A DNA stretch of 64,000 bases from an uncultured Acidobacteriota bacterium (GCA_963745495.1 CAVUXJ010000005.1:198847-262846), one strand, 5' to 3'. Shown: positions 1,185-17,556, numbered from the stretch's first letter. Translations and numbers: made by a program. The notes: generated by a model not told the origin, from the letters alone.

Positions 1185-2069
1185 TCAGCGGTCCTTGGAT
1201 GGACTGGCGGCGGGCTCGATGCCTGCGCGCTCGAGGATGGACGCGAGAACGGCCGGCGCGCGCCGGATGGGCAGATTGCTGATGTAAAAGTGGCGGGCGC
1301 CGACATCGAGCAGCGTCCGCAGGGTCCGGGCGCAAGCCTCCTCGGCGCTGGCGCCCGCCGCGAACTCGCGCGTGAGCCCTTCGACCGGCACGGGCAGAAA
1401 GCTCTGGAGCGCGGCAAGGGTACGAGGGTTCGCGCTCCGGTAGAAAAACACGCCGAATACGGCTGGTAATGTCATTGCGCGCCGTCTGGCGGCGTTGAGA
1501 AACCGTTCGACGGTCCTGACGTCGTGATGACTGACAACCTGTGTGAGGTAGAACTCTGCGTGAAAGCTCGGCGACGCAAGGTAGTCAATCTGCGTGTCGG
1601 CATCGCCGTGCGGGTTCGCCCATCCGCCGAGCGTGATCGCGTGGTCGCGGGCGTGAAGCAGCTGCCGCAATTGCCATGCATGTTCAACCGATCGCGGCAT
1701 GCCCACCGACTTGTCGCCGCCGAGCACGACCAGCGCGGGAAAGCCGGCTTGGTGCGCTCTGTCGGCGTATGACAGGCAGTACTCGAGCGAGTGCTTCGCC
1801 GTGAGAAACGGCACGATTCGCTGGCGGGGAACGTCCTTGCCGAGGTTCGTGACGAGATGCCGCAGGTTGTCCTCTTCCTCGGCGCCCACTGCGCTGTCGG
1901 TCAGGAAGACGAAGGTGCCCTCCCGGGTGAACCGCCGCACCGCGTGGTACGTGTCGATCCAGGCGTCCATCCCTTCGCCCGGAGTGAGCTCCGTCCGCGG
2001 GGGCCGCAATTCGGCGCCGAACACGGACGCGCCGGCGCGCAGGGCGGACAAGAGATCGGGAACTGCCAT
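1185..2069 (-). CDS. Divergent methylenetetrahydrofolate reductase (MetF)-like flavoprotein
   Basis: AELRPPR (cf. FEFFPPK), VVLGGD (cf. ALRGD) and YLTQ (cf. FITQ) in MetF order, 294 aa. Confidence 0.55.
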   Translation of the reverse strand: MAVPDLLSALRAGASVFGAELRPPRTELTPGEGMDAWIDTYHAVRRFTREGTFVFLTDSAVGAEEEDNLRHLVTNLGKDVPRQRIVPFLTAKHSLEYCLSYADRAHQAGFPALVVLGGDKSVGMPRSVEHAWQLRQLLHARDHAITLGGWANPHGDADTQIDYLASPSFHAEFYLTQVVSHHDVRTVERFLNAARRRAMTLPAVFGVFFYRSANPRTLAALQSFLPVPVEGLTREFAAGASAEEACARTLRTLLDVGARHFYISNLPIRRAPAVLASILERAGIEPAASPSKDR

Positions 2070-2070
2070 G

Positions 2071-2148
2071 GGCAGGACGGGCGGGAGGGGCAGGAACGGC
2101 AGGAGCGGACGCCTTCCAGCCCCTCCTGCCTCTCCTGCCTATCCGGCC
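2071..2148. repeat. Palindromic array of 9-bp units (GGCAGGAnn x4, inverted x4)
   Basis: ggcaggacg/ggcgggagg/ggcaggaac/ggcaggagc then cttccagcc/cctcctgcc/tctcctgcc/tatccggcc. Confidence 0.8.
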
Positions 2149-2564
2149 CTTCTATAGGTCTTGAGGGCTTCGTCGATGAGAAACAAGTCTGTCAGCAGCG
2201 CCCGCAGGTGAATGGAGGCATTGAGGTTGTCGACCAGCTGGGAGCTGATGGCCGGCTGGGCCAGCACCAGCCGTACGGCTGCCTGGGCATCGCGCGCGTC
2301 GCGGTCGAGCACCGTCATGAACGCCGTGAAAGGCGCCGCCGACTCGACACCGATCTGCTCAACGAATCTGTTCAGAAATCCGGCCAGATCCGTGAGCGCC
2401 TCGTCAGACCTGCGGAGGAACGTCCGAATCTGGCTTCCGCTGCCGGTGCCCACGTCGCTATCAAGTCCTTGTGCCGCGTACGCGAGCATGAACTCATAGC
2501 ACTCTTCGATCGCGTTGCAGCGGCTGTTCAGCTCGGCCCGCGCGGCTTCGAGTACGGCGCTCAC
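2139..2564 (-). CDS. Hypothetical helical protein (141 aa)
   Basis: GTG start overlaps the cytochrome b stop (GTGA); protein-like sequence IEECYEFMLAYAAQG...DNLNASIHLRALLTDLFLIDE. Confidence 0.7.
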   Translation of the reverse strand: MSAVLEAARAELNSRCNAIEECYEFMLAYAAQGLDSDVGTGSGSQIRTFLRRSDEALTDLAGFLNRFVEQIGVESAAPFTAFMTVLDRDARDAQAAVRLVLAQPAISSQLVDNLNASIHLRALLTDLFLIDEALKTYRRAG

Positions 2565-3406
2565 GCCCTGCCCGCCGGCTGTGTCTTCCTGCCCTTCACG
2601 TTCCAACGACCGCGATCGTGATGCTCGAGGTACTGGCGGCGCGTGATCCAGCCGAAGATCATCCCTCTCGTGATCCAGAACAGGTCGGGGCGAAGCGCGA
2701 AGTACACGTGCGCCATCACGAGGCCGACGAGCCCGACACCGGCAAAGCCGTGCAGCAGGTACGTCCACCCCCACGTCGTGTCGCTCATGAAGTAGGGATT
2801 GCGGGTGAGGATAGGCGTGCGGACGCGCTGGATCATCAGCAGCCCCGTCAGGACCGCCGCGAAGCCGACGACGACGATCGCGAGGTGGTACAGGCGGTTG
2901 CCGAGGGGATATTTGCCCGGTTTCGGTCCTGGCACATCGTGACCGAGCTCGCGCAGGATCTCGGACTTGAATTCTGGAATGTCTTTCGGACCCACCCAGA
3001 TGGACCAGAAGTCCAGCCAGAAGGTGGCGTGGAAGATATGGAAAATGATCGATCCTGTCAGAACGAGCCCGGCCATCCAGTGCCACTGCACCCAGGGGAA
3101 CCTGATCCCGGAGATGGGCAGGAACGCCGTGAACAGCAGCGTGAACATGGAGGCGGCCATCACCCAGTGGAACATGCGGGCCATGAACGAGTGCCGCGGG
3201 ATGCGCTCGGGGAGATCCTTGTTGGTGGCTTCGAGCGCGTCAACTTCGGCCGTGTTCCGTTTCCGATGCGCGGACAGCACCATGTAGCTCGCGTGCGCGA
3301 CAAGGAACATGAGGCCCGCGATCAAGGACGCCCACAGCAGGTCCCACGAAATGTGCGTCAGGATGTCTTGTCCCCAAGGATTGCGTCCCCACGACAGGAA
3401 GTTCAT
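2561..3406 (-). CDS. Membrane cytochrome b, formate dehydrogenase gamma subunit (FdnI)/Ni-hydrogenase cyt b family
   Basis: RHSFMARMFHW, QWHW, GKYPLGNRLYH, LLHG and MAHVYFA heme-ligand histidines; EHH tail; five hydrophobic segments. Confidence 0.8.
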   Translation of the reverse strand: MNFLSWGRNPWGQDILTHISWDLLWASLIAGLMFLVAHASYMVLSAHRKRNTAEVDALEATNKDLPERIPRHSFMARMFHWVMAASMFTLLFTAFLPISGIRFPWVQWHWMAGLVLTGSIIFHIFHATFWLDFWSIWVGPKDIPEFKSEILRELGHDVPGPKPGKYPLGNRLYHLAIVVVGFAAVLTGLLMIQRVRTPILTRNPYFMSDTTWGWTYLLHGFAGVGLVGLVMAHVYFALRPDLFWITRGMIFGWITRRQYLEHHDRGRWNVKGRKTQPAGRA

Positions 3407-3523
3407 GTTGTCCCCTTTGCCCTATATAAGACCTGCGCTGCCGTGCGGGCCACGGCAGCGAGGCGTCAGCGTAAATGTAAAGGGCGCCGGACCGGGACAC
3501 GCCGGCGCCGATGAAACGCAGTA

Positions 3524-4540
3524 CTAGGTGGTCGCCGTCGGCCCGGTCCCGCGGATGGCGCGTTTGACGAGGTTGCGCATCAGGGGAATCTTGTAGCCGT
3601 TGTAGCGGAGCGGCACGGCGCCCTCGACGGCCAGCCGGCCGGCCAGGTCCGCCGTCGCGTCATTGCGCGGCTGCCCGGCCACCGCCGTCTCGACCGCCCG
3701 CAGCCGCACCGGCGTCGCCGCGACGGCGCCCACCGCCAGGCGCAGGGCCTGGATCGTGCCGCCCGAGGCTTTCATCGCCGAGGCGACGTTGACGAGCGGA
3801 AAGTCCCAGACCTGCCGGTCGCGCACCTTCTCGAAGTAGAACTGGGCCCCGGCCCAGGTCGCCGGAAGCCGGATGGCCGTCAGCAGTTCGCCCGGCCGCA
3901 GCACCGTCATCCGCATGATGTCGATCCCCGGGCCCACAAAGTAGGCTTCCGCGTCCACCACCCGTTCCCCGCCCCCCGCGCGGCGCAGCACCATCTGCGC
4001 GTCGAGCGCGATCAGCGCCGGCGCCGTGTCCGACGGGCTCACCGCCACGCAGCGGTCGGCATTGAGGATCGCGTGCTCGCGGTTGATCGCCGTCGGCGTA
4101 TCCGCATAGCAGATGTTGCCGCCCGCCCGATAGCACGTCCAGCCGCTGCGGTAATACCAGCAGCGCGTGTCCTGCGAGACGTTGCCGCCGAGCGTCCCCT
4201 GGTTGCGGATCTGCGGCGAGGCCACCAGGTCGGCCGCTTCCCGCAGCAGCCCGAACTGCTCGCGCACCACCGGGTGCCGCCCGACCTCGGTCAGCGTGGT
4301 CAGCGCCCCGATCTCGAGGCCGCCGTTGACCTCCTTGATCCCGCGCAGCTCCGCCACCTGGCTCAGGTCGATGACGAGGCTGGTCCGCTTCGCCCGGTCC
4401 TTGAGCCAGTCAAACGTATCGAGGCCGCCCGCCATGATCCAGGCCTCGGCTCCGTAGCGATCCAGCAGGCTCAGGGTATCGGCCACCGTCGCCGGCTGAA
4501 ACAGCTCGAAGACCGGCATCACGTCGCGAATGACTGCCAT
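3524..4540 (-). CDS. Xanthine dehydrogenase family FAD-binding medium subunit, PaoB/YagS-like (copy 1)
   Basis: ASPQIRNQGTLGGN, Cys-rich insert RCWYYR...CYRAGGNIC...C typical of the 4Fe-4S-bearing PaoB/HcrB type, NGYKIPL. Confidence 0.9.
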   Translation of the reverse strand: MAVIRDVMPVFELFQPATVADTLSLLDRYGAEAWIMAGGLDTFDWLKDRAKRTSLVIDLSQVAELRGIKEVNGGLEIGALTTLTEVGRHPVVREQFGLLREAADLVASPQIRNQGTLGGNVSQDTRCWYYRSGWTCYRAGGNICYADTPTAINREHAILNADRCVAVSPSDTAPALIALDAQMVLRRAGGGERVVDAEAYFVGPGIDIMRMTVLRPGELLTAIRLPATWAGAQFYFEKVRDRQVWDFPLVNVASAMKASGGTIQALRLAVGAVAATPVRLRAVETAVAGQPRNDATADLAGRLAVEGAVPLRYNGYKIPLMRNLVKRAIRGTGPTATT

Positions 4541-4556
4541 ATCAGTTGCTCCTGAA

Positions 4557-4690
4557 ATCTGGAGATCGGGTCATCGGGTGATCTGGTCACGGCTGGAGTC
4601 AGGTGACTGACCCATCCCCCAAATCACTAACTCGTAAATCACTGAATCGCCAAACCACCAAGTCGCCAAATCACTCCTGATCACTAAATG
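4557..4690. repeat. Palindromic array of 8-bp units (ATCTGGTC type)
   Basis: atctggag/atcgggtc/atcgggtg/atctggtc then inverted cactaact/cactgaat/cgccaaac/caccaagt/cgccaaat/cactaaat; near-identical copy at 14068-14200. Confidence 0.75.
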
Positions 4691-7191
4691 TTTGCCGTCA
4701 ACGTGTCATGCATCGGCCGGCCGTGTTCGAGCGCCATCAGGATCATGTCCGGCGTCACCGGCGCGCGACGGAAAACCTCGTCGCTATTGAGCGCCGCCGA
4801 GATTGCATTCACGATGGCGCCGAAGCCCGCACCGACCGGCGCTTCGCCCACGCCGCGCGAACCCACCGGGGTCTCCGGATCGGCGATATCGACCGCCGCC
4901 CATTGCATCTTCGCCGGCGCATCGAGAATTGACGGGGGCTTGCTGTAATGGAAGCGCTTGGCGAGCGGCACGCCGTAGTGCTGGTCGTACACCCACTTCT
5001 GACCGATCGCATGGCCGATCCCGAGCATCACCCCGCCGAGAATCTGACCGCCCAGATTGCGCGGATGCAGCACGGTCCCGCAGTCGGCCACCGCCAGGTA
5101 ATCGAGGATCTTGTACGCTCCGGTTTCGGTGTCGATCTCCACCTCGGCAAACCCGGCGACGTACGATTTCGAAATGCCGTCGCGGCCGTAATTGTCCTTC
5201 GCAACGCCCATCAGGCCTTGCCCGGCGAGCGCGGTCGCCGACGTTCTGGTGACGGGGTTGATATCGGCCGGCAGTTCATGGCCGTCGTACGTCCCGCCGA
5301 GTTCGATCGCCTTCTGCGCCGCCTGGGCCAGCGTCATGCTGCGTCCGCCTCCAGACACCCGCTCGTTCGCGACCTGATACGAGGCGGGAGCGCCGCCGAG
5401 CGTCTTGGCCGCGATCTCCTGCAGCTTCTTCTTGGCGTCGGATGCGGCTGCGTGGGCCGCGCGCGGCATGGCGTGCGCCGTCTGGCTGCCGCCCTGGTTG
5501 CATGTGTTCGGCAGGTTCTTGGCCGTGTTGCCCCAAGCGATATCGACTTTGTCCCACGGCACACCGAGGATGTCCGCCGCCACGCGATGGGAGTCGAACA
5601 CCGATTCGGTGCCCAGGTTGCCAATGCCCGACTGGATGGCGAGCCGGCCGTCCGGCTTGATCACCATGAGCCCGTCGAACCCGATCGAGCCGGCGGAATA
5701 CGTGCTCACTGCGACGCCGACGCCGCTCACCTTGGATCCCACGCGCTGCCCGCTTCGCGCTTTCCGCTCTTCCCAGTTGAAGAGCGCGGCCCCTTTGTCC
5801 AGGGCGTCCTTCAGGAACGCGCTCGTCACATGATTCCGCTGTCCGCGCGCGTTGGGGGCGCCAAAGTCCGCCTTCCCCTCAGGGGCGTTGATCCGCCGGA
5901 TGGCGACCTGATCGATGCCGAGCTGACGAGCCGCCTTCGCGAGGATCGGCTCCATCAGCGAGTTACCCTGCATCCCACCCGGCGCGCGCTGAGCGCCGCG
6001 CGGCGGGGTGTTCGTCAGCACGGTGACCATGCGCCACCGCATCGCGAGCGGCTGACAGGCCAGCGAGATATGGTCACCGGCCGACCGCGAATCGTTCACG
6101 ACGTCGTACGGCCCGTTGTCGATGATGGCGAACCCGTCGAGCGCCGTGATGCGGCCATCCTTCCGGAAGCCGATCTTCACGCGCGAATGCAGCGCCGGGC
6201 GGGCGCGGCCGATGGCATGCTCGTCGTCGCGCGTGATCCGCATCATGACCGGCGCGTTGGCTTTCTTCGACAAGAGCGCCGCCACAGCCACGAACACCGA
6301 CGAGGAGCCCTTGCTGCCGAAACCGCCGCCGGTGTACTCGCTGATGATGACGACGTTCTCGGGCGGGATGCCGACCCATCGCGCGACCGAGCCGACGGTG
6401 CGCATGGTGCTCTGGGTCGAGCAGTGCATATACAGCTTGCCGTTCTGCCAGTACGCCATCGCGGTGCGCGTCTCGAGCGGCTGATGGCTCGTGTTGTTCC
6501 CGACGAACGTCTCGTCGAGAATGAGGTCGGCCTGCTTGAAGCCCGCCTCGACATCGCCGGCCTGCCACTCGTCCGTGTGCTTGCCGAGCGGAAGTTGTCC
6601 GGGTCCGGCCGCGGCGAAATCCTCGTCCGTCCACTTCAGTTCCTGCACCTGAGGCCGCGCGGGCGCGGCCGCCGGGCCTGCCCCTGGTCCTGCCTGTGGG
6701 GCGCCCGGCGCCGGCAGCGGGCGAACCCAGGCGTTGCCCTGCGTGCGCGCGTTGGGACTGTTGGGTCGCAGCGTCTCAATCGGATCCACCGCGAAGGGCA
6801 GCGGCTCGTACTCGACCTGGATCCGCTCGATCGCTTCGGTCGCGGTCAGCTCGTCCACCGCCGCCACCGCCAGAATCGGCTCGCCATGGTACAGCGGCTC
6901 CATCGTCAGGCCGCGCTCGCTCAGCGTGCTCGCGATGATGCCTTCGCCGAGGTTCGCGCCCTCGACGACGGCCGGCAGATCGTCGACCGTCAGGATCGCT
7001 TTGACGCCCGGCATCGCGAGCGCCGCGCTCGTGTCGATGCGTATCACTCGGGCGTGCGGCATCGGGCTGCACAGCAGCTTCGCGAACAGCATGCCCTCCG
7101 CGCGGAAGTCTTCGGCGTACTTCGCCTTGCCCGTGACTTTCGCGACGAGGTCGGGGGTCGAATAATTCTGGCCGACTAATTTATCTGCCAT
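4684..7191 (-). CDS. Xanthine dehydrogenase family molybdopterin-binding large subunit (copy 1)
   Basis: KVTGKAKYAED, GGGFGSK, QRAPG, RGVGEAP with catalytic Glu, 835 aa. Confidence 0.92.
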   Translation of the reverse strand: MADKLVGQNYSTPDLVAKVTGKAKYAEDFRAEGMLFAKLLCSPMPHARVIRIDTSAALAMPGVKAILTVDDLPAVVEGANLGEGIIASTLSERGLTMEPLYHGEPILAVAAVDELTATEAIERIQVEYEPLPFAVDPIETLRPNSPNARTQGNAWVRPLPAPGAPQAGPGAGPAAAPARPQVQELKWTDEDFAAAGPGQLPLGKHTDEWQAGDVEAGFKQADLILDETFVGNNTSHQPLETRTAMAYWQNGKLYMHCSTQSTMRTVGSVARWVGIPPENVVIISEYTGGGFGSKGSSSVFVAVAALLSKKANAPVMMRITRDDEHAIGRARPALHSRVKIGFRKDGRITALDGFAIIDNGPYDVVNDSRSAGDHISLACQPLAMRWRMVTVLTNTPPRGAQRAPGGMQGNSLMEPILAKAARQLGIDQVAIRRINAPEGKADFGAPNARGQRNHVTSAFLKDALDKGAALFNWEERKARSGQRVGSKVSGVGVAVSTYSAGSIGFDGLMVIKPDGRLAIQSGIGNLGTESVFDSHRVAADILGVPWDKVDIAWGNTAKNLPNTCNQGGSQTAHAMPRAAHAAASDAKKKLQEIAAKTLGGAPASYQVANERVSGGGRSMTLAQAAQKAIELGGTYDGHELPADINPVTRTSATALAGQGLMGVAKDNYGRDGISKSYVAGFAEVEIDTETGAYKILDYLAVADCGTVLHPRNLGGQILGGVMLGIGHAIGQKWVYDQHYGVPLAKRFHYSKPPSILDAPAKMQWAAVDIADPETPVGSRGVGEAPVGAGFGAIVNAISAALNSDEVFRRAPVTPDMILMALEHGRPMHDTLTANI

Positions 7192-7193
7192 TG

Positions 7194-7811
7194 TCAGGCC
7201 CTCCGCATGTTCTCAGCGCCCTTCATCAGGGCGGTGAGGATCTTGTCGTAGTCCTGGCACCGGCACAGATTGCCGGACACCCCATGCGCCAGCTCGGCCC
7301 GGGTCGGGTTCGGATTCGTCTTGAGGAAGCCGGCCGCCGCCATCACGAAGCCCGGCATGCAGAAGGCGCACTGGAACCCCTGCTCGCTCACCACGCCCTG
7401 CTGGATCGGATGCAGCGTCCCGTCGGCGCTGGCCAGCCCTTCGATCGTCACGATCTTCGCGCCGCGCACCGAATGCGTCAGCACCGAGCACGAATACCGG
7501 GGCACATCGTCCACCAGGACGGTGCAGGCGCCGCATTCCGAGCGGTCGCAGCCCAGCTTGGTGCCGGTCAGCCCGAGCTTGTAGCGCAACGTCATGGCCA
7601 GCGTTTCCTGCTTCATCACGTCGACGCGGCGATCCTGCCCGTTGACGTTCAGCGTCAGGAGCCGCTCGACGCTGCCCGGCAGCGACGGCTGCTGCCCGAG
7701 CAGCGCGCTCCCGCGGAACACATAGGCCGCCGACGAGACCGCGGCGCCCGCCGCAATCACTCCCTTGATGAAGTTCCGTCTGGAGACATCTCGTTGAGTG
7801 TCCTCAGTCAT
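7194..7811 (-). CDS. Tat-exported (2Fe-2S) small subunit, PaoA/YagT-like (copy 1)
   Basis: SRRNFIK twin-arginine signal; GCDRSECGACTV, QCAFCMPG, NLCRC. Confidence 0.92.
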   Translation of the reverse strand: MTEDTQRDVSRRNFIKGVIAAGAAVSSAAYVFRGSALLGQQPSLPGSVERLLTLNVNGQDRRVDVMKQETLAMTLRYKLGLTGTKLGCDRSECGACTVLVDDVPRYSCSVLTHSVRGAKIVTIEGLASADGTLHPIQQGVVSEQGFQCAFCMPGFVMAAAGFLKTNPNPTRAELAHGVSGNLCRCQDYDKILTALMKGAENMRRA

Positions 7812-7879
7812 CGTTCTATCTCCCATAGCTGAAGCGCCTAGGCTCGTTTGGACCGGGCTGGACAAGAGGAAATGAAGGA

Positions 7880-7908
7880 AACATACGCTGAATCGGGCCA
7901 GGTTTCAA
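7880..7908 (-). promoter_or_regulatory. Putative sigma70 promoter of unit 1
   Basis: TTGAAA-17 bp-TATGTT on the minus strand; equivalent motifs precede units 2 and 3. Confidence 0.55.
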
Positions 7909-8345
7909 GGTCTGACTGGATCGGTGGTCGTGGCGGGGATCGCCTCATCCACGGAAATGGACCATTCCAGCGCCGCTGATTCGATGCCAAGGTAGAACGG
8001 ACGGGGATCCTCGTTGACGTACACCGTATTGCTACCGGTGCCTCGATGGTCGACAGCCAGGACGAGCGGCCGTCCGCTGACGTCGCTGTAAACGGTGATC
8101 TGAAAGACTCCCTTCCCGGGAGCCGCCTCGTTGCGGGTTTCCCATTGCAGCCGCAGCGTGCCGGTATCGCTGATGAACGGTTCGGTCGATATTGGACCGC
8201 GGCCAGTCCAGGACCCGAGCTTCCGCCAGGCTTGCACGTCCCTTGTGACAGGCTTCGGTTTGTCTCCGCACGCGTCGAACAGGAAGCCGAACGTCGCTAC
8301 GACAACGACCTGGGAGCCGAGTAACCGGAGCGCTCGATAGTTCAA
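7905..8345 (-). CDS. Hypothetical exported/lipoprotein, paralog 1
   Basis: Hydrophobic N-terminus then ACG; aligns by eye with 12468-12902 (LGSWTGRG, WETRNE, SGRPL, NEDPR, LEWS); start codon uncertain. Confidence 0.7.
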   Translation of the reverse strand: MNYRALRLLGSQVVVVATFGFLFDACGDKPKPVTRDVQAWRKLGSWTGRGPISTEPFISDTGTLRLQWETRNEAAPGKGVFQITVYSDVSGRPLVLAVDHRGTGSNTVYVNEDPRPFYLGIESAALEWSISVDEAIPATTTDPVRP

Positions 8346-8377
8346 TGACCCGAGTACCCCGTGACTCGTGCCGAAGC

Positions 8378-8400
8378 GAAAGGGGGTACGACCCCTTTTT
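8378..8400. terminator. Hairpin with A/T flanks; possible bidirectional terminator or REP-like palindrome
   Basis: gaaagggggtacgaccccttttt downstream of FAD subunit copy 2. Confidence 0.45.
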
Positions 8401-8443
8401 GATGACGGATCGAGCAAAAAAGCGTCACAAGCGCCTTCCGCGA

Positions 8444-9459
8444 TCAGGTGGTCGCCGTCGGCCCGGTCCCGCGGATGGCGCGTTTGACGAGGTTGCGCAT
8501 CAGGGGAATCTTGTAGCCGTTGTAGCGGAGCGGCACGGCGCCCTCGACGGCCAGCCGGCCGGCCAGGTCCGCCGTCGCGTCGTTGCGCGGCTGCCCGGCC
8601 ACCGCCGTCTCGACCGCCCGCAGCCGCACCGGCGTCGCCGCGACGGCGCCCACCGCCAGGCGCAGGGCCTGGATCGTGCCGCCCGAGGCTTTCATCGCCG
8701 AGGCGACGTTGACGAGCGGAAAGTCCCAGACCTGCCGGTCGCGCACCTTCTCGAAGTAGAACTGGGCCCCGGCCCAGGTCGCCGGAAGCCGGATGGCCGT
8801 CAGCAGTTCGCCCGGCCGCAGCACCGTCATCCGCATGATGTCGATCCCCGGGCCCACAAAGTAGGCTTCCGCGTCCACCACCCGTTCCCCGCCCCCGCGC
8901 GGCGCAGCACCATCTGCGCGTCGAGCGCGATCAGCGCCGGCGCCGTGTCCGACGGGCTCACCGCCACGCAGCGGTCGGCATTGAGGATCGCGTGCTCGCG
9001 GTTGATCGCCGTCGGCGTATCCGCATAGCAGATGTTGCCGCCCGCCCGATAGCACGTCCAGCCGCTGCGGTAATACCAGCAGCGCGTGTCCTGCGAGACG
9101 TTGCCGCCGAGCGTCCCCTGGTTGCGGATCTGCGGCGAGGCCACCAGGTCGGCCGCTTCCCGCAGCAGCCCGAACTGCTCGCGCACCACCGGGTGCCGCC
9201 CGACCTCGGTCAGCGTGGTCAGCGCCCCGATCTCGAGGCCGCCGTTGACCTCCTTGATCCCGCGCAGCTCCGCCACCTGGCTCAGGTCGATGACGAGGCT
9301 GGTCCGCTTCGCCCGGTCCTTGAGCCAGTCAAACGTATCGAGGCCGCCCGCCATGATCCAGGCCTCGGCCCCGTAGCGATCCAGCAGGCTCAGGGTATCG
9401 GCCACCGTCGCCGGCTGAAACAGCTCGAAGACCGGCATCACGTCGCGAATGACTGCCAT
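8444..9459 (-). CDS. FAD-binding medium subunit (copy 2), apparent 1-bp frameshift near 8895
   Basis: Near-identical DNA to 3524-4540; one C missing in a C-run. Confidence 0.88.
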
Positions 9460-9473
9460 AGGCTGACTCCTGA

Positions 9474-9536
9474 ATCTGGTCATCGGGTCATCTAGTCATC
9501 TGGTCATTGATTGACCAAATAACCAGATAACTAGAT
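9474..9536. repeat. Palindromic array of 8-bp units
   Basis: atctggtc/atcgggtc/atctagtc/atctggtc then gaccaaat/aaccagat/aactagat. Confidence 0.8.
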
Positions 9537-12062
9537 GTTCGCAGCGTCAACGGCTCCTGCATCGGCCGGCCGTGCTCCAGCGCCATCAGGATCATATCCG
9601 GCGTCACCGGCGCGCGGCGGAAGATGTCGTCGCTGCCAAGCGCCGCTGAAATCGCGTTGACCACGGCACCGAACCCGGCACCCACCGGCGCCTCGCCGAT
9701 GCCGCGGGCCCCGACCGGCGTTTCCGGATCCGGAAGGCCCAGCGCGACTGCGTCCATCTTGAGCGGCGCATCGAGGATCGAGGGCGGCTTGTTGTGGTAG
9801 AAGCGTTTGGCGAGCGGCACGCCGTAGTGCTGGTCGTACGCCCACTTCTGGCCGAGGGCATGTCCCAGCCCGAGCATGATGCCGCCCAGCACCTGCGCCT
9901 TCAGGTTGCGCGGGTGGATCACGGTGCCGCAATCGGCGACCGCGAGCAGATCGAGCACCTGATACTGCCCGGTCTCGACGTCCACTTCGACTTCGGCGAA
10001 CGCCACCGTGTACGCCTTCGTGATGCCGTCGCGCCCGTAATTATCTCTGGCGACCCCCATCAACCCCTGACCCGCGAGATTAGTCGCCGATGTCTTGGTG
10101 AAGGCCGCGATATCCTCCGGGAGCTCGTGACCGTCGTACGTGCCGCCGAGCTCGATCGCCTTCTGCGCCGCCTGCGCCAGCGTCATGCTGCGCCCGCCGC
10201 TCGACACTCGCTCGTTCGCCACACGGTAGGACTCGGGACGTCCGCCGAGCGTCTGGGCCGCGATCTCCTGCAGCTTCTTGACGAGATCGCTGGCGGCGGC
10301 GTGTGCGGCGCGCGTCATCGCGTGCGTCGTCGAGCTGCCGCTCTGGCTGCAGGTGTTCGGCAGGTGCTTCGACGTGTTGCCCCACGTCACGTCGACTTTG
10401 TCCCACGGGATGTCGATCAGTTCAGCGGCGACGCGGTGCACATCGAACGTGGACTCGGTGCCGAGGTTGCCGATGCCCGACTGGACGGTCAATCGCCCGT
10501 CGGGTTTCAGAATCAGCAACCCATCGAAGCCGACGGGTCCGCCGGAATAGGCGCTGACCGCGACGCCGACGCCGCGAACCTTCGAGCCATTGCGTTCGCC
10601 ATTGTGCGCCTTCCGTGCCTCCCACCGGAACAATTCGGCGCCCTTGTCCAACGCCTCTTTCACGAACGCGCTCGTCACATGATTCCGGACGCCGCGTGCG
10701 TTCGGCCCGCCGAACTCCGCCTTGCCGGACGGGGCGTTGATCCGGTGAATCTCGACTTCGTCGATGCCAAGCCTGCGCGCCGCCTTCGCAAGAATCGGCT
10801 CCATCAATGCGCTGGCCTGGTAGCCACCCGGGGAGCGCTGCGCGCCGCGCGGCGGCGTGTTCGTCAGCACGTTCAGTGCGCGCCACCGCATGGCCAGAGG
10901 CTGATGCGACAGGGATCCGTGGTCCCCCAGGGATCGCGAGTCGCCGACCACGTCGTACGGTCCGTTGTCGACCACGAACAACCCGTCGAGCGCCGTAATG
11001 CGGCCGTCCTTCCGGAAGCCGATCTTGACGCGTGAATGAATGGCGGGGCGGGCACGGCCGATGGCGTGCTCGTCGTCACGGCTGATCCGCATCATGACCG
11101 GCGCGTTGGCCTTCTTCGACAGCAGCGCGGCGACGGCGATGAAGACCGACGACGAGCTCTTGCTGCCGAACCCGCCGCCCGTGTATTCGCTGATCACGAC
11201 CACATCCGCCGGCTTGATGCCAACCCATCGCGCCACCGCCGCCACCGTGCGGACCGTGCTCTGCGTCGAATTGATCATGTAGAGCTTGCCGTTCTGCCAG
11301 TACGCCATCGCCGAGCGCGTCTCGAGCGGCTGGTGACTCGTGTTGTTCCCGACAAACGTCTCGTCGAGAATGAGAGCGGCGTCCTTGAACCCTGCCTCCA
11401 CATCGCCGTACGACCACTCGTCGGTGTGCTGGCCGAGGGGCAGCTGTCCGTCGTGCGCCGCGGCAAAATCCTCCGCGGTCCACTTCAGCTCTTTGACCTG
11501 CGGCCGGGCGGGCGCCGCGGCGGGCGTGGCGGTACCGCTCGTAATCGGCTGCCCCGCCGCCGCCTGCGGCGCGGGTGGCGTCGCAGGCGGCCGGATCCAC
11601 ACGTTGCCCTGCACCCGCGCGTTCGGACCGCCGGGGCGCAAGCTGACGAGCGGATCGACCGCGAAGGGCAGCGGCTCGTACTCGACCTGAATCCGCTCGA
11701 TCGCTTCGGTCGCGGTCAGCTCGTCCACCGCCGCCACCGCCAGAATCGGCTCGCCGTGATACAGCGGCTCCATCGTGAGGCCGCGCTCGCTGAGCGTGCT
11801 CGCGATGATGCCCTCGCCCGAGGTTCGCGCCCTCGACCACGGCCGGCAGATCGTCGACCGTCAGGATCGCTTTGACGCCCGGCATCGCGAGCGCCGCGCT
11901 CGTGTCGATGCGTGTCACTCGCGCGTGCGGCATCGGGCTGCACAGCAGCTTCGCGAACAGCATGCCCTCGGCGCGCAAGTCCTCGGCATACTTCGCCTTG
12001 CCCGTGACCTTCGCCACAAGGTCGGGCGTGAGGTAGTCCTGCCCGACCAATTTGTCAGCCAC
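9531..12062 (-). CDS. Molybdopterin-binding large subunit (copy 2), apparent frameshifts near 11815 and 9543
   Basis: ORFs 11076-12062 (N-terminus) and 9488-11773 join into one paralog; GGGFGSK, QRSPG, RGIGEAP; homologous ANI-stop at 9531. Confidence 0.88.
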
Positions 12063-12063
12063 G

Positions 12064-12341
12064 TTACGCCCTCCGCATGTTCTCAGCGCCCTTCATCAGG
12101 GCGGTGAGGATCTTGTCGTAGTCCTGGCACCGCGCTCCTGCTTCATCACGTCGACACGGCGATCCTGCCCGTTGACGTTCAGCGTCAGGAGCCGCTCGAC
12201 GCTGCCCGGCAGCGACGGCTGCTGCCCGAGCAGCGCGCTCCCGCGGAACACATAGGCCGCCGACGAGACCGCGGCGCCCGCCGCAATCACTCCCTTGATG
12301 AAGTTGCGTCGTGACACGTTCGGCTGCGTCGCTTCGATCAT
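12064..12341 (-). pseudogene. (2Fe-2S) small subunit copy 2 with ~340-bp internal deletion
   Basis: Tat signal and C-terminal QDYDKILTALMKGAENMRRA DNA are present, but 350 bp of copy 1 (7261-7610) correspond to only 10 bp (12131-12140); may be an assembly artefact. Confidence 0.7.
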
Positions 12342-12422
12342 CTGAACGTCTCCCTGTCGCTGGAATCGGCCGGGCTCGGCGACTGCGTCGGCGGGCGTTT
12401 GTCGATGTCTGTGATCGCGACC

Positions 12423-12451
12423 ACGATAAGCTGAATCAGGCCAATGTTCAA
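12423..12451 (-). promoter_or_regulatory. Putative sigma70 promoter of unit 2
   Basis: TTGAAC-17 bp-TATCGT. Confidence 0.5.
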
Positions 12452-12467
12452 GCTCAAGGAGCGCTGA

Positions 12468-12902
12468 TCACCGACCCGTTTGATGGGGCTTGTCTTGGAC
12501 TTTTGACGCGGTGACGGCAAGGCCCTCCTCGACCGTCACGGACCACTCGAGGTTGGCCGAGTCCACGACCAGGTAGAACACCCGGGGATCTTCGTTGATG
12601 TAGGAAATGTCGTGACCCACGCCCCGTGATTCGCCGGCAAGTGCGAGGGGCCGCCCGCTGATCGCGCTGTGAACGGTCACCTGAAACCTTCCGCGTCCGC
12701 GCGCGGTCTCGTTGCGCGTTTCCCACCTCACGCGCAGGGAACCGGTCTCGCCGATGAAGGATTCTGTCTGTTGCGATCCCCGGCCCGTCCATGAGCCCAG
12801 CTGCTGCCAGATGAAGGCGTCCTCGGTGGCGGGCTTCGACTCGACGCCACAGCCGGCAGCAAACAGAACGCCTGCCGCGACGAGCAGAGTATGTAGGTTC
12901 AA
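12468..12902 (-). CDS. Hypothetical lipoprotein, paralog 2
   Basis: LLVAAGVLFAAGC lipobox; homologous to 7905-8345; start codon uncertain. Confidence 0.72.
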   Translation of the reverse strand: MNLHTLLVAAGVLFAAGCGVESKPATEDAFIWQQLGSWTGRGSQQTESFIGETGSLRVRWETRNETARGRGRFQVTVHSAISGRPLALAGESRGVGHDISYINEDPRVFYLVVDSANLEWSVTVEEGLAVTASKVQDKPHQTGR

Positions 12903-12929
12903 CTGTGAGGTCTCACGTCTGAAGTCTGA

Positions 12930-12973
12930 GAGCCTGTGAAGAAATCGCCAAACAGCGATTTCTTCACAGGCTC
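12930..12973. mobile_element. 44-bp MITE-like element with 19-bp perfect terminal inverted repeats
   Basis: GAGCCTGTGAAGAAATCGC-caaaca-GCGATTTCTTCACAGGCTC flanked by TGA on both sides; an 18/19 match to the arm occurs at 44125-44143. Confidence 0.55.
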
Positions 12974-13033
12974 TGAGGCGTGCCTGAGCACGTCGGACGT
13001 CAACGTCCAAGAGACGATCCGAGCCGCGACCAA

Positions 13034-14051
13034 TCAGGTGGTCGCCGTCGGCCCGGTCCCGCGGATGGCGCGTTTGACGAGGTTGCGCATCAGAGGAATC
13101 TTGTAGCCGTTGTAGCGGAGCGGCACGGCGCCCTCGACGGCCAGCCGGCCGGCCAGGTCCGCCGTCGCTTCGTTGCGCGGCTGCCCGGCCACCGCCGTCT
13201 CGACCGCCCGCAGCCGCAGCGGCGTCGCCGCGACGGCGCCCACCGCCAGGCGCAGGTGCCTGGATCGTGCCGCCCGAGGCTTTCATCGCCGAGGCGACGT
13301 TGACGAGCGGAAAGTCCCAGACCTGCCGGTCGCGCACCTTCTCGAAGTAGAACTGGGCCCCGGCCCAGGTCGCCGGAAGCCGGATCGCCGTCAGCAGTTC
13401 GCCCGGCCGCAGCACCGTCATCCGCATGATGTCGATCCCCGGGCCCACAAAGTAGGCTTCCGCGTCCACCACCCGTTCCCCGCCGCCCGCGCGGCGCAGC
13501 ACCATCTGCGCGTCGAGCGCGATCAGCGCCGGCGCCGTGTCCGACGGGCTCACCGCCACGCAGCGGTCGGCATTGAGGATCGCGTGCTCGCGGTTGATCG
13601 CCGTCGGCGTATCCGCATAGCAGATGTTGCCGCCCGCCCGATAGCACGTCCAGCCGCTGCGGTAATACCAGCAGCGCGTGTCCTGCGAGACGTTGCCGCC
13701 GAGCGTCCCCTGGTTGCGGATCTGCGGCGAGGCCACCAGGTCGGCCGCTTCCCGCAGCAGCCCGAACTGCTCGCGCACCACCGGGTGCCGCCCGACCTCG
13801 GTCAGCGTGGTCAGCGCCCCGATCTCGAGGCCGCCGTTGACCTCCTTGATCCCGCGCAGCTCCGCCACCTGGCTCAGGTCGATGACGAGGCTGGTCCGCT
13901 TCGCCCGGTCCTTGAGCCAGTCGAACGTATCGAGGCCGCCCGCCATGATCCAGGCCTCGGCCCCGTAGCGATCCAGCAGGCTCAGGGTATCGGCCACCGT
14001 CGCCGGCTGAAACAGCTCGAAGACCGGCATCACGTCGCGAATGACTGCCAT
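13034..14051 (-). CDS. FAD-binding medium subunit (copy 3), apparent 1-bp frameshift near 13257
   Basis: Near-identical to copy 1; extra T in cgcaggtgcc. Confidence 0.88.
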
Positions 14052-14067
14052 ATCAGTTGCTCCTGAA

Positions 14068-14200
14068 ATCTGGAGATCGGGTCATCGGGTGATCTGGTCA
14101 CGGCTGGAGTCAGGTGACTGACCCATCCCCCAAATCACTAACTCGCTAAATCACTGAATCGCCCAATCACCAAGTCGCCAAATCACCCGATCACTAAATG
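14068..14200. repeat. Palindromic array of 8-bp units, duplicate of 4557-4690
   Basis: Same spacer sequence as unit 1 with few differences. Confidence 0.75.
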
Positions 14201-16698
14201 TTTGCCGTCAACGCCTCGTGCATCGGACGCCCGGCCTCGAGCGCCATCAGGATCATGTCCGCTGTCACCGGTATGCGCCGGAACACGTCGTCACCCACCG
14301 CTGCCGCAATTGCATTCAGCACAGCCGTGCAGCCGGCGCCGACCGGCGGCTCGCCGATCCCCCGCGCGCCGACCGGGGTCTCCGGATCCGGCAGGTTCAC
14401 GGCCGCAAACTGGAAATTGGCCGGCGCATCGAGAATTGACGGCGGCTTGTTGTAGTGGAAGCGCTTGGCGAGCGGCACGCCGTAGTGCTGGTCGTACACC
14501 CACTTCTGACCGATCGCATGGCCAATGCCCAGCATCAACCCGCCGAAGGTCTGGCCCTGCAGGCTGCGGGGATTGATGACGGTGCCGACGTCGGCGACAG
14601 CCGTGAAATCGAGAATGGCGACGTGGCCCGTCTCGACGTCCACTTCGACCTCGGCGAAGCCGACGACGTACGAACGCGACTGGCCGTCTCGCGGATACGT
14701 GTCGCGTGCGGCCACCACCAGACCTTGCCCGGCCAGCGCCTTGATCGACGTCTTCGTGTAGTTGTTGACGTTCTCGGGCGGCTCATGACCGTCGAACTTC
14801 CCGCCGAGCTCGATCGCCTTCTGCGCCGCCTGTGCCAGCGTCATGCTGCGCCCGCCGCCGAACACGCGGCCATCGGCCACCTGATAGCTCGCCGGCGCGC
14901 CGCCGAGCGTCTGGGCGGCGATCTCCTGCAGCATCTTCTTGGCCTGGGTGCCGACAGCGTGCGATGCACGTGTCATGGCATGCAGCGTCTGGCTGCCGCC
15001 AGACGCGCAGGTCCAGGGCAGGTTTTTCGACGTGTTGCCCCAGACGACCTCGCATTGCTCCCACGACACGCCGAGAATCTCGGCCGCCACGCGGTGCACG
15101 TCGATCACGGCGTGCGTGCCGAGGTTGCCGATACCGGATTGCAGCTGCACCTTCCCGTCGGGTCTGATGACCAACAGGCCGTCGAAGCCAATCGAACCGG
15201 CCGCATACGTGCTGATGCCGACGCCAGAGCCACGCACCTTCGACCCGATCCGCTGTCCGCTCCGCGCCTTTTTTTCTTCCCAGTTGAACAGCTCGGCGCC
15301 CTTGTCGAGCGCTTCCTTGACGAAGGCGCTCGTCACGTAGAGCTGCTGGCCGCGCGCCGCGGGCGCTCCGAATTTCGCCTTCCCTGCCGGAGCGTTGATC
15401 TTCCGGATGGCCACCTGATCGACCCCCAGCTTGCGCGCCGCCTGGGAGATGATGGGCTCCATGATCGCGACGCCCTGCATCCCGCCGGGCGCGCGTTGCG
15501 GGCCTCGCGGTGGCGTGTTGGTCAGCACGTTCAGCATGCGGGCGCGCATCGCCTTCGGCTGGTACGCCAGAGAGATCACGTCCGCCGCCGACCGCGCATC
15601 GCCCACGGCGTCGTAGGGGCCGTTTTCCACGAGGGCGAACAGATCGAGGGCCGTGATACGGCCTTCCTTGTCGAAGCCGACCTTGGCTCGCGCGTGAAGC
15701 GCGGGGCGGGCGCGGCCGATGTAGTGATCTTCTTCGCGCGTGATGCGCATCATCACCGGAGCGTTGGCCTTCTTCGACAGCAGCGCCGGGATGGCCATGG
15801 CGATGTTGCCCGGGATCCGGCTGCCGAAGCCGCCGCCCGTGTACTCGCTGATCAGCACGACGTTCTCGGCGGGAATGCCGACCCAGCGCGCGATCGAGGC
15901 AACGGTCTGGACCGTACTCTGCGTGCCACCGTGCAGATACAGTTTGCCGTTCTGCCAGTACGCCATCGCAGAGCGTGGCTCCAGGGCCTGGTGGCTCGTG
16001 TTCTGGCCCACAAAGGTCTGGTCGATCACGAGGGCTGCGTCTTTGAACCCGGCCTCGATGTCGCCGTATGTCCACTCGTCACCGGTGTGCTTGCCCAGGG
16101 GGAGCTGCCCCTCACCGGCTGCGGCGAAGTCCTCGGCCGTCCATTTCAGCTCTTTGATTTCGGGACGCGCGGGTGCTGCGGCAGGCTGGCCCGGCGCTGC
16201 CGGCGGCGGTGCGGCCGTCACCGGAGGGCGGACCCAGACGTTGCCCTGCGTCCGCGCGTTCGGCCCGCCCGGGCGCAGGCTGGCGATCGGATCGACGACG
16301 AAGGGCAGCGGCTCGTACTCGATCTGAATCCGCTCGATCGCCTCGGTCGCGGTGAGCTCGTCCACCGCCGCCACCGCGAGGATCGGCTCACCGTGATACA
16401 GCGGCTCCATCGTCAGGCCGCGCTCGGTCTGGATCGAGGCCGTGATGTTCTCGCCGAGGCTCGCCCCGGCGGCAGCACCAGGCAGGTCCTCAACCGTGAG
16501 AATGGCTTTCACCCCGGGCATCGCGAGCGCCGCGCTCGTGTCGATGCTCACCACGCGCGCATGCGGCATCGGGCTGAGCAGCAGCTTCGCGAACAGCATC
16601 CCGTCGGCGCGGAAGTCTTCGGCGTACTTCGCCATGCCCGTGACTTTCGCGACGAGGTCCGGGGTGGTGTAGTTCTGTCCGATTAGTTTGTCAGCCAC
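14194..16698 (-). CDS. Molybdopterin-binding large subunit (copy 3)
   Basis: GGGFGSRIPG, QRAPG, RGIGEPP, 834 aa. Confidence 0.92.
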   Translation of the reverse strand: MADKLIGQNYTTPDLVAKVTGMAKYAEDFRADGMLFAKLLLSPMPHARVVSIDTSAALAMPGVKAILTVEDLPGAAAGASLGENITASIQTERGLTMEPLYHGEPILAVAAVDELTATEAIERIQIEYEPLPFVVDPIASLRPGGPNARTQGNVWVRPPVTAAPPPAAPGQPAAAPARPEIKELKWTAEDFAAAGEGQLPLGKHTGDEWTYGDIEAGFKDAALVIDQTFVGQNTSHQALEPRSAMAYWQNGKLYLHGGTQSTVQTVASIARWVGIPAENVVLISEYTGGGFGSRIPGNIAMAIPALLSKKANAPVMMRITREEDHYIGRARPALHARAKVGFDKEGRITALDLFALVENGPYDAVGDARSAADVISLAYQPKAMRARMLNVLTNTPPRGPQRAPGGMQGVAIMEPIISQAARKLGVDQVAIRKINAPAGKAKFGAPAARGQQLYVTSAFVKEALDKGAELFNWEEKKARSGQRIGSKVRGSGVGISTYAAGSIGFDGLLVIRPDGKVQLQSGIGNLGTHAVIDVHRVAAEILGVSWEQCEVVWGNTSKNLPWTCASGGSQTLHAMTRASHAVGTQAKKMLQEIAAQTLGGAPASYQVADGRVFGGGRSMTLAQAAQKAIELGGKFDGHEPPENVNNYTKTSIKALAGQGLVVAARDTYPRDGQSRSYVVGFAEVEVDVETGHVAILDFTAVADVGTVINPRSLQGQTFGGLMLGIGHAIGQKWVYDQHYGVPLAKRFHYNKPPSILDAPANFQFAAVNLPDPETPVGARGIGEPPVGAGCTAVLNAIAAAVGDDVFRRIPVTADMILMALEAGRPMHEALTANI

Positions 16699-16699
16699 G

Positions 16700-17317
16700 T
16701 TACGCCCTCCGCATGTTCTCAGCGCCCTTCATCAGGGCGGTGAGGATCTTGTCGTAGTCCTGGCACCGGCACAGATTGCCGGACACCCCATGCGCCAGCT
16801 CGGCCCGGGTCGGGTTCGGATTCGTCTTGAGGAAGCCGGCCGCCGCCATCACGAAGCCCGGCATGCAGAAGGCGCACTGGAACCCCTGCTCGCTCACCAC
16901 GCCCTGCTGGATCGGATGCAGCGTCCCGTCGGCGCTGGCCAGCCCTTCGATCGTCACGATCTTCGCGCCGCGCACCGAATGCGTCAGCACCGAGCACGAA
17001 TACCGGGGCACATCGTCCACCAGGACGGTGCAGGCGCCGCATTCCGAGCGGTCGCAGCCCAGCTTGGTGCCGGTCAGCCCGAGCTTGTAGCGCAACGTCA
17101 TGGCCAGCGTTTCCTGCTTCATCACGTCGACGCGGCGATCCTGCCCGTTGACGTTCAGCGTCAGGAGCCGCTCGACGCTGCCCGGCAGCGACGGCTGCTG
17201 CCCGAGCAGCGCGCTCCCGCGGAACACATAGGCCGCCGACGAGACCGCGGCGCCCGCCGCAATCACTCCCTTGATGAAGTTCCGTCTGGAGACGTCTCGT
17301 TGAGTGTCTTCGGTCAT
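16700..17317 (-). CDS. Tat-exported (2Fe-2S) small subunit (copy 3)
   Basis: Protein identical to copy 1 from MTEDTQRDVSRRNFIK onward. Confidence 0.92.
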   Translation of the reverse strand: MTEDTQRDVSRRNFIKGVIAAGAAVSSAAYVFRGSALLGQQPSLPGSVERLLTLNVNGQDRRVDVMKQETLAMTLRYKLGLTGTKLGCDRSECGACTVLVDDVPRYSCSVLTHSVRGAKIVTIEGLASADGTLHPIQQGVVSEQGFQCAFCMPGFVMAAAGFLKTNPNPTRAELAHGVSGNLCRCQDYDKILTALMKGAENMRRA

Positions 17318-17381
17318 TCGTGAAATCTCCCGTGGCTGAAGCAGCGAGGCTCCCGACGGATCGGGAAAAGAAACCGAGCTC

Positions 17382-17409
17382 ACAATACGCGGAAATCGCC
17401 GGAAATCAA
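17382..17409 (-). promoter_or_regulatory. Putative sigma70 promoter of unit 3
   Basis: TTGATT-16 bp-TATTGT; an additional extended -10 TGcTATAGT at 17475-17483. Confidence 0.5.
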
Positions 17410-17556
17410 AGACTCAAGATCGAATCGAACGCGGCACACCACCCGAGTCGCGACGGCGTGCGGAGCAGCTCTAAACTATAGCACGCGCATGTTTTACGTG
17501 GAAGATCTAACCGCTGGCCTCCGGTTGTCAGAAGTCCGGTCCGCTATAGTCAATCG

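Follow-up and report, generated by a model that had tools for sequence, protein, structure and literature searches.

Subunit-selective concerted evolution in a tandem array of putative Tat-exported molybdenum hydroxylase genes from an uncultured Acidobacteriota bacterium

Here we ask how a tandem array of molybdenum hydroxylase genes can carry near-identical electron-transfer subunits beside catalytic subunits that have clearly diverged, and what this would imply for the enzymes encoded. The array lies in a stretch of 64,000 nucleotides (nt) from an uncultured soil bacterium of the Acidobacteriota (GCA_963745495.1 CAVUXJ010000005.1:198847-262846), hereafter called the window, from whose first letter all positions are counted. 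Open reading frames (ORFs), alignments and Pfam matches define three tandem paralogous units, with all genes on the minus strand (3524-17383), built from a small iron-sulfur subunit (S; Fer2, Fer2_2 and TAT_signal), a molybdenum-cofactor catalytic subunit (L; Ald_Xan_dh_C, MoCoBD_1 and MoCoBD_2) and a flavin adenine dinucleotide (FAD) subunit (M; FAD_binding_5 and CO_deh_flav_C). Unit A (17317-12468) reads S-L-M-lipoprotein, unit B (12340-7905) consists of an S relic followed by L-M-lipoprotein, and unit C (7811-2561) reads S-L-M-cytochrome b, the last gene of the array matching PF01292; only unit C reads without any break throughout in the assembly. A preliminary description of this DNA had counted three tandem S-L-M units; the three paralogous units are there, but the second has lost its S gene, leaving two S genes and a relic, and each unit has a fourth gene which that description did not name; following M, it encodes a lipoprotein in the first two units and, in unit C, a protein of the cytochrome b561 type. 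Taking all the results together, we read the array as units of the xanthine oxidase family, exported by twin-arginine translocation (Tat), in which S and M are under gene conversion, the L genes are old paralogs most likely drawing on one pool of S and M, and the frameshifts are most likely errors. We put the probability of this reading as a whole at roughly three in four.

Comparison of the copies within the window separated the subunits clearly. Counted from ATG (17317 and 7811, respectively) to stop, 5 of the 618 nt separate S_A from S_C, with a longest exact match of 590 nt; three of these differences fall in the first 24 nt, one is synonymous (nt 615) and one lies in the stop codon, and the two genes encode one identical protein of 205 amino acids. 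Over some 1017 nt, the M copies are separated by eight (A/C), five (A/B) and two (B/C) substitutions. Identity among the L genes is 73.9-79.4% for DNA and 71.6-81.2% for protein, and per 100-nt segment it drops to 58-80% in the middle of the gene, although the first 360 nt or so of L_B and L_C are 94-98% alike. The near-identity of the FAD genes, the identity of the S proteins in the first and third units and the divergence of L through its middle had all been noticed in the preliminary description, and each is borne out by these counts. The lipoprotein copies of units A and B, at about 52% amino acid identity, are not homogenized, unlike S and M.

At least 595 related stretches occur in public genomes, and the best 80, which come from Vicinamibacterales, Terriglobia, Bryobacterales and other Acidobacteriota, were compared. 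A search for the same array in related genomes had been proposed beforehand, and another genome of the same genus (G001; the genome of the window is G000) holds three units in the same order, A with a lipoprotein gene, B with an S relic and a lipoprotein gene and C with cytochrome b. Orthologous L genes of the two genomes are 96.1% (A), 96.0% (B) and 93.6% (C) identical in nucleotides, L_C reaching 97% in amino acids, against 73-80% between paralogs. The M copies, on the other hand, are most alike within each genome (99.0-99.6% in G000, 99.8-100% in G001 and 99.8% in a further genome, G007), the identity falling to 96.7-97.4% between G000 and G001 and to 83-84% against G007. M gives 1016 ungapped columns. 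At 25 of them G000 and G001 show fixed differences that run through all three copies of either genome; variation is confined to G000 at eight columns, is present in both genomes at two and is nowhere confined to G001. At five of the eight sites variable in G000, M_A retains the state of G001 while B and C share the derived one, which indicates stepwise homogenization. In S, eight sites are fixed between the two genomes, and five within-genome differences, located at tract ends, are common to both. The identity profiles of G001 and G007 have the form of a square wave, with 100% over S and M, sharp edges and 60-80% in L; in G007 the full identity also covers the first 180 nt of L.

Rates of synonymous substitution (dS) led to the same picture. 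Aligning the units and computing dS for each subunit, as the preliminary description had suggested, gave 0.72-0.80 between L paralogs, 0-0.023 between M copies within a genome and 0.026 for S, while M_C of G000 and M_C of G001 differ by 0.086. A quick tree was built from 30 L proteins (16 loci were chosen from the 80; G001_A and G018_1, both frameshifted, were left out, and G000_B entered with 758 amino acids). In it, L_A groups with L of other genera (SH-like approximate likelihood ratio test, SH-aLRT, 98), and a clade that also contains other genera holds L_B and L_C as sisters (99), so that the duplication separating A from B and C is older than the genus. The ratio of nonsynonymous to synonymous substitution (dN/dS) of the L orthologs is 0.071 (A), 0.062 (B) and 0.061 (C); purifying selection acts on every one of these old paralogs. 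For S and M, identity is higher between paralogs of one genome than between orthologs of two, with a duplication that predates the split, and dS of the converted parts is far below that of the unconverted L in the same unit. These results give good support to the conclusion that concerted evolution, through gene conversion that is still going on, holds S and M at 99-100% identity within each genome. The conversion tracts have sharp ends, located at the start of S, at the stop of S or up to a few hundred nt into L, and at the stop of M; for the B/C pair, conversion extends about 360 nt into L. Tract edges fall where the flanks lose homology (lipoprotein versus cytochrome b).

Two further sets of genomes illustrate the pattern. 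In the metagenome-assembled genome of Acidobacteria bacterium RIFCSPLOWO2_12_FULL_68_19, one locus (L091:1332-14943) has two S-L-M-cytochrome b units, both complete and separated by 3 kb, between which identity is 79% for S, 70.5% for L, 76% for M and 74% for cytochrome b; there is therefore no homogenization there, and the locus serves as a natural control. In three short-contig assemblies (G009, G016 and G017), contigs of 2.7-6.3 kb carry different L genes and end in identical pieces of M or S (131/132, 127/127, 135/135 and 119/119 nt), which is the signature of identical repeats breaking a short-read assembly.

Gene conversion is a known process, and tufA and tufB are familiar cases of concerted evolution by this route. 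As in rRNA operons and the mtrA copies of methanogens, paralogs of one genome are here closer to each other than orthologs of different genomes, conversion has gone on for a long time and its tracts form mosaics; unlike in those systems, homogenization acts selectively within a multi-subunit operon, sparing the catalytic gene in between, and one redundant S copy has been lost twice. Concerted evolution by gene conversion is the subject of PMC6002687 and, for mtrA, of PMC4632066. The literature that we searched, mostly at listing level, contained neither homogenized S and M genes in molybdenum hydroxylase arrays nor an S-L-M-cytochrome b operon in Acidobacteriota.

The fate of S in unit B bears directly on how the subunits may be used. 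The relic carries an internal, frame-breaking deletion of 340 bp (junction at 12135), which takes out every iron-sulfur cysteine and leaves an ORF of 81 codons with the Tat signal. We take the deletion to be real; G001 has lost S_B too, by a different and non-nested deletion: its relic retains 17 nt that are absent from the relic of the window and lacks the 5' 225 nt that the latter retains. S_B has hence been deleted independently in the sister genomes G000 and G001. Since unit B is without S in two genomes and its L has a dN/dS of 0.062, L_B must use an S made elsewhere.

Catalytic genes without electron-transfer partners of their own occur in other genomes. One locus (G011) reads S-L-M-L-(2.4 kb)-L, and the 2.4 kb between its second and third L (L034:9373-11810) contain long open frames with no Pfam match; two others (G015 and G018) read S-L-M-lipoprotein-L and continue with unrelated genes. 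Outside the window, the same genome carries a fourth L paralog (contig C15:181104-183561, locus L038:4096-6568), which along most of its length shares about 57-60% identity with L_C and has a GVGE motif. S, M, lipoprotein and cytochrome b genes are all absent from its neighborhood. This gene is broken in the assembly by a frame change at about codon 64 and by an out-of-frame stretch of some 60 codons, and its ortholog in G001 is broken elsewhere.

It is plausible, on the sequence data, that the three or four L subunits draw on one common pool of S and M, because the S and M proteins hardly differ, if at all, S_B was lost twice and lone L genes exist. The proposal in the preliminary description of interchangeable catalytic heads on a shared S/M chassis gains from the two independent losses of S_B, from the L genes lacking S and M of their own and from the lone fourth L, all of them indirect support. 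The different substrate ranges that it gave to the heads would be a further step, the L proteins still being 72-81% identical and all retaining the GxGE glutamate. Going one step further, we may tentatively propose a combinatorial periplasmic oxidase in which the three L subunits of the array and the lone L compete for one S/M module and a single quinone-reducing cytochrome b, the identity of S and M being kept by selection; we regard this as possible but somewhat short of probable.

The main rival to a selected common pool is that homogenization is a neutral by-product, S and M being still able to recombine, L having diverged past recombination and each L pairing with its S and M in cis. Gene conversion indeed needs just sequence identity and is self-reinforcing, the tract edges coincide with the loss of flanking homology, and in the lineage of the control locus the enzyme works as separate, non-homogenized units. 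This account has to accommodate, however, a unit B that lacks S in two genomes while its L remains constrained and needs S from elsewhere, the lone L genes in G011, G015, G018 and on contig C15, and S and M proteins so identical that mixing would be physically unavoidable. We therefore consider it rather unlikely as a full explanation, and a neutral cause, even if correct, would leave untouched the need of L_B for an outside S.

The four frame breaks in M_A, L_B and M_B (Table 1) raise the question of whether the array is instead decaying, with real frameshifts, a real S_B deletion and only unit C (and L_A) working in this strain. Four frame-breaking indels and one large deletion within 9 kb, the latter real and present in both genomes, would fit such a scenario, as would the intact rpoB and rpoC of this genome and the fact that homopolymer slippage accounts for neither the +2 at 9543 nor the +1 A at 13257. 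We nevertheless hold decay to be improbable. The alignment of window positions 1-41166 with the syntenic region of G001 contains 109 indels of a length not a multiple of three, and none of the array indels is common to G001, where L_B (a frame of 852 amino acids) and M_B are intact but L_A has five single-base insertions and M_A one. Single-copy genes are broken too: a 931-amino-acid frame of G001 is spread over four frames at window positions 30559-33357, an M49 peptidase (688 amino acids) falls into two ORFs, 19078-19929 and 19700-21097, with the break at about 19647 and, conversely, a 370-amino-acid frame of the window falls in four frames in G001. Frameshifts that are not shared and that hit single-copy genes in both genomes point to general indel errors in the assembly. 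The completeness of G000, 74.5%, is low for only 16 contigs and fits broken marker genes, and dN/dS values of 0.06-0.07 in all three L orthologs do not fit decaying genes.

Public short contigs from four soil runs of three studies (X1, X2, X3 and X5), aligned on 8750-13300 with depth not used as copy number, also read the unshifted forms. At 8891/8893 the contigs have one base more (depth 35.7/35.7 in X1, 12.3/12.3 in X2, 127.3/212.5 in X3 and 5.11/5.11 in X5); at 9543, covered by X1 only, they have two bases fewer (11.1/11.1); at 11817/11820 they have one base fewer (18.4/18.4 in X1 at 11820, 8.8/8.8 in X2, 55.1/103 in X3 and 5.29/5.29 in X5 at 11817); and at 13257/13258 they have one base fewer at full depth in all four runs. 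The small indels in M_A, L_B and M_B are thus very probably assembly consensus errors and not gene decay.

Of the two explanations that would dispense with conversion altogether, the stronger supposes that S and M are young segmental duplicates set beside old L genes, and the arrays with a single S and M but several L genes (G011, G015 and G018) could then represent the ancestral state. We judge this highly improbable: G000 and G001 share a layout of three M genes and two S genes plus a relic, from which it follows that the S and M copies predate the split, yet 25 sites of M and eight of S are fixed per genome; M_A is still G001-like at five of eight variable sites, which indicates stepwise homogenization, and identity spills over into the 5' part of L. 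The remaining explanation, that the near-identity of S and M arose from assembly or polishing, mixed reads or strain chimerism, can draw on the many indel errors of the assembly, on the difficulty of polishing repeats of 0.6-1 kb and on contigs that show a single M type at 13095-13300, but it is scarcely credible when copy-specific variants survive and fit the phylogeny, the pattern recurs in G001 and G007, in three short-contig assemblies the breaks fall exactly at M or S ends that are identical although the L genes beside them differ, and divergent units assemble normally (L091). As had been stated beforehand, the array is accordingly not a simple collapsed repeat, and we retain concerted evolution of S and M beside old, diverged L paralogs.

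What kind of enzyme does this array encode? L_A and L_C match PF01315, PF02738 and PF20256 above the cut-offs, and L_B, scanned as an ORF of 761 amino acids, matches PF02738 and PF20256 above the cut-off and PF01315 with 24.8 against 31.3 bits, a shortfall due to the missing N-terminus of the scanned ORF. All three L carry a GxGE motif (GVGE or GIGE; residues 780-783 in A and C and 788-791 in B), which aligns to AVGE of 5y6q_C and to ASEG of 1rm6_A and whose glutamate we take to be catalytic after E1261 of bovine xanthine dehydrogenase. S has two [2Fe-2S] motifs (C-x4-C-x2-C-x11-C at residue 106 and C-x2-C-x31-C-x-C at residue 166) and a Tat sequence, SRRNFIKG followed by a hydrophobic stretch, which scores 20.9 bits with the Pfam TAT_signal model, slightly below the cut-off of 22.7; the starts of L and M are without a signal. 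M contains an insertion with four cysteines, which align to those of 5y6q_B, are invariant in 31 of 31 aligned homologs and presumably form a [4Fe-4S] site. The molybdenum-cofactor domains and GxGE motif of L, the two [2Fe-2S] motifs of S and the FAD domain of M place the array among the xanthine oxidase family's three-subunit members.

The cytochrome b of unit C matches PF01292 with 72.2 bits (cut-off 30.1), has an extra N-terminal segment ahead of this domain and keeps nine histidines (H18, H38, H72, H80, H109, H123, H174, H219 and H233) invariant in 31 homologs; two hemes need four histidine ligands. S-L-M-cytochrome b is the common form of the locus (51 of the best 80), followed among the others by S-L-M-lipoprotein (five), S-L-M at a contig end or before other genes (five) and loci with at least two L (three); L041 and L045, which have the architecture of G007 and G015, were not counted as independent.

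The lipoprotein family, which adjoins these operons in many Acidobacteriota, has about 100 core residues, with W15, W21, G23, T29, R40, W43, S62, S65-G66-R67 and others invariant. It matched no Pfam or NCBIfam family, and in the Atlas it falls in hypothetical clusters confined to Acidobacteriota, with weak leads to GOLD and PPC at 0.83-0.84. The AlphaFold2 model of the unit B protein is a beta-sandwich (predicted local distance difference test, pLDDT, 92.3), for which Foldseek against the Protein Data Bank (PDB) returned generic beta-sandwich matches only (best E 1.9e-4, TMq at most 0.54).

Comparison with known systems showed partial likeness to several and equivalence to none. In the best-matching solved structures, L resembles 1rm6_A (2e-61) and 5y6q_C (5e-53), M resembles 5y6q_B (2e-46) and S resembles 1rm6_C (1.5e-40), so that the closest are the 4-hydroxybenzoyl-CoA reductase (4-HBCR) HcrCAB of Thauera (1RM6) and an aldehyde oxidase of Methylobacillus sp. 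(5Y6Q). HcrCAB is a cytoplasmic reductase, reportedly with an additional [4Fe-4S] cluster, which is named in the title of its structure paper; the S of the array differs in having a Tat signal, and the predicted partner here is a membrane cytochrome b. In NCBIfam, the HcrCAB alpha, beta and gamma models scored 346.5, 170.1 and 156.7 bits against cut-offs of 994.55, 404.55 and 257.8, the PaoC model 243.4 against 1180 and the PaoA model 135.1 against 322; no equivalog model was reached by any subunit, all scores being far below cut-off. With phmmer, L, M and S matched Escherichia coli PaoC (1e-48), PaoB (1e-31) and PaoABC (S, 3e-33). PaoABC itself acts on aldehydes and carries the MCD cofactor.

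PaoABC, the periplasmic aldehyde oxidoreductase with which the preliminary description had equated the architecture, is described as a heterotrimer of a subunit with two [2Fe-2S] clusters and a Tat leader, an FAD subunit and a molybdenum-cofactor subunit (PDB 5G5G/5G5H; PMC3958847, PMC4273604). The match holds for the subunit set, for the Tat leader, present on the iron-sulfur subunit only and absent from L and M, and for the four-cysteine insertion in M; since L and M have no signal of their own, hitchhiker export is expected as in PaoABC. It fails for the gene order, which is S-L-M and not paoA(S)-B(M)-C(L)-D, for the XdhC/PaoD gene, which is absent from the array (the sole PF02625 match of the genome is on contig C3), for the NCBIfam scores and for the added membrane cytochrome b and lipoprotein and the tandem multiplication. 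As to the cytochrome b, it resembles the di-heme anchors of the FdnI/HyaC type in matching PF01292 and in closing the operon of a redox enzyme exported by Tat, and it differs from FdnI in its NCBIfam score (41.5 against a cut-off of 115.85), its extra N-terminal segment and its nine invariant histidines. A pairing of cytochrome b with the xanthine oxidase family was not found in the literature searched.

Placing these features into a mechanism, S would carry the two [2Fe-2S] clusters and the Tat signal, L the molybdenum cofactor and M the FAD and the presumed [4Fe-4S] cluster, and the complexes would be exported together by means of the signal on S. Aldehydes or heterocycles may then be oxidized in the periplasm, with electrons passing from molybdenum through the two [2Fe-2S] clusters, FAD and [4Fe-4S] to cytochrome b and finally to quinone. 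For a periplasmic enzyme linked to quinone, it seems unlikely that the reaction runs in reverse as in 4-HBCR.

Several points weigh against the reading that we prefer. We infer subunit sharing, export, the electron path, the operon structure and the substrates from sequence. When M was co-folded with cytochrome b, the score was 0.53, the best control having 0.00 (contacts at least 88% agreed across runs, partner pLDDT at least 77), which counts as weak support. Of the 80 solved complexes 58 attain this mark, as do 2 of the 110 mismatched pairs; scores of 0.60 or less belong to only seven of the 80 solved complexes and to both passing mismatches. A scan of 2000-18000 for promoters and terminators did not rise above shuffles (2 promoter-like matches against 1.7 and 11 terminator-like against 7.2), and the three top terminator matches are one coding sequence repeated inside the M copies. 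As regards the frameshifts, rpoB and rpoC are intact, so that indel errors are not everywhere; six indels in 4.5 kb of the array is a high local density; and recent true lesions in this strain are possible. The public contigs in M, S and the 5' part of L may stem from any of the near-identical copies, the best-matching run (X1) may be the source sample of the window itself, and none of the contigs listed spans the S_B junction at 12135, where they run on as S of the A/C type. The tree of L is a quick version supported by SH-aLRT only. Lastly, a polishing artifact common to G000, G001 and G007, all of them large-contig assemblies, is conceivable, although the short-contig assemblies G009, G016 and G017 argue against it.

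The features of the array are collected in Table 1. The L-M spacers of units A and C are 98% alike, and the predicted fold of the unit C spacer RNA is no better than shuffles (z = -1.1). The spacer between L_B and M_B forms a predicted hairpin with a 20-bp stem, made of the 8-nt repeat ATCTGGTC and its complement, whose RNA fold (-37.8 kcal/mol, z = -6.7) was equaled or beaten by none of 200 shuffles. About 400 nt downstream of the cytochrome b gene, at 2069-2150, lie inverted runs of 9-nt repeats (GGGCAGGAC, 3.9 copies, and GCCTCTCCT, 4.3 copies), and G001 lacks 25 and 17 nt in the matching repeat region; these repeats may be a hairpin of the same fast-changing class as the spacer hairpins, or a terminator. 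An Rfam scan of 2000-18000 (E at most 0.1) returned just two spurious matches to microRNA models, both on this repeat hairpin. The neighboring genes (a short-chain dehydrogenase/reductase, a beta-CASP RNase, the M49 peptidase, an aminotransferase and a 4-alpha-glucanotransferase) give no hint of the substrate.

Table 1. Coordinates of the array genes and of the spacers between them, in window positions
Feature	Position	Strand	Remarks
S_A, small subunit, 205 amino acids	16700..17317 (mechanical ORF to 17383)	-	Tat signal SRRNFIKG, two [2Fe-2S] motifs; Pfam Fer2, Fer2_2, TAT_signal
L_A, molybdenum-cofactor catalytic subunit, 834 amino acids, intact	14194..16698	-	Pfam Ald_Xan_dh_C, MoCoBD_1, MoCoBD_2; GIGE glutamate at 783
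L-M spacer, unit A	14052..14193	-	mostly 8-nt direct repeats; tandem repeat rows 14076-14199
M_A, FAD subunit	13033..14051	-	frameshifted in assembly, +1 A at 13257, because of which the ORF extends to 12468
Lipoprotein gene, unit A	12468..12890, start not fixed	-	lipobox FAAGC; frame 2 translation; homologous to unit B lipoprotein
S_B relic	12063..12340	-	own start, Tat signal and about 225 nt; 340-bp deletion; last 72 nt out of frame
L_B, catalytic subunit	~9488..12062	-	+1 G at 11819 breaks the frame; +2 (CT) at 9543-9544 alters the C-terminus, both in assembly
Hairpin in L_B-M_B spacer, 8-nt repeats	9474..9536	-	tandem repeat rows and RNA fold
M_B, FAD subunit	8444..9461	-	frameshifted, -1 in G run at ~8894
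Lipoprotein gene, unit B, 170-amino-acid ORF	7905..8417	-	lipobox FDAC
S_C, small subunit	7194..7811 (mechanical ORF to 7865)	-	protein identical to S_A
L_C, catalytic subunit, 835 amino acids, intact	4684..7191	-	Pfam; GxGE
L-M spacer, unit C	4541-4683	-	like unit A spacer; tandem repeat rows 4565-4672
M_C, FAD subunit, 338 amino acids, intact	3524..4540	-	Pfam PF00941, PF03450; four-cysteine insertion C127, C136, C144, C164
Membrane cytochrome b, last array gene	2561..3406	-	PF01292, FdnI/HyaC type

These results offer a clean example, repeated in several genomes, of concerted evolution that selects among the subunits of one enzyme, and they also caution that frameshifts in the repeat-rich parts of such assemblies are not to be taken as pseudogenes. 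Acidobacteriota are among the most abundant soil bacteria, and the S-L-M-cytochrome b family, although uncharacterized, is widespread in them and has no curated family. Its conserved cytochrome b suggests a route from periplasmic molybdenum hydroxylases into the quinone pool, which bears on PaoABC, an enzyme whose terminal electron acceptor is called unidentified in PMC3958847. The array predicts that several catalytic subunits use one electron-transfer module. If the combinatorial arrangement is true, the linked cytochrome b would point to the type of acceptor missing for PaoABC-type enzymes, and Vicinamibacterales would widen their substrate range by duplicating the catalytic gene alone.

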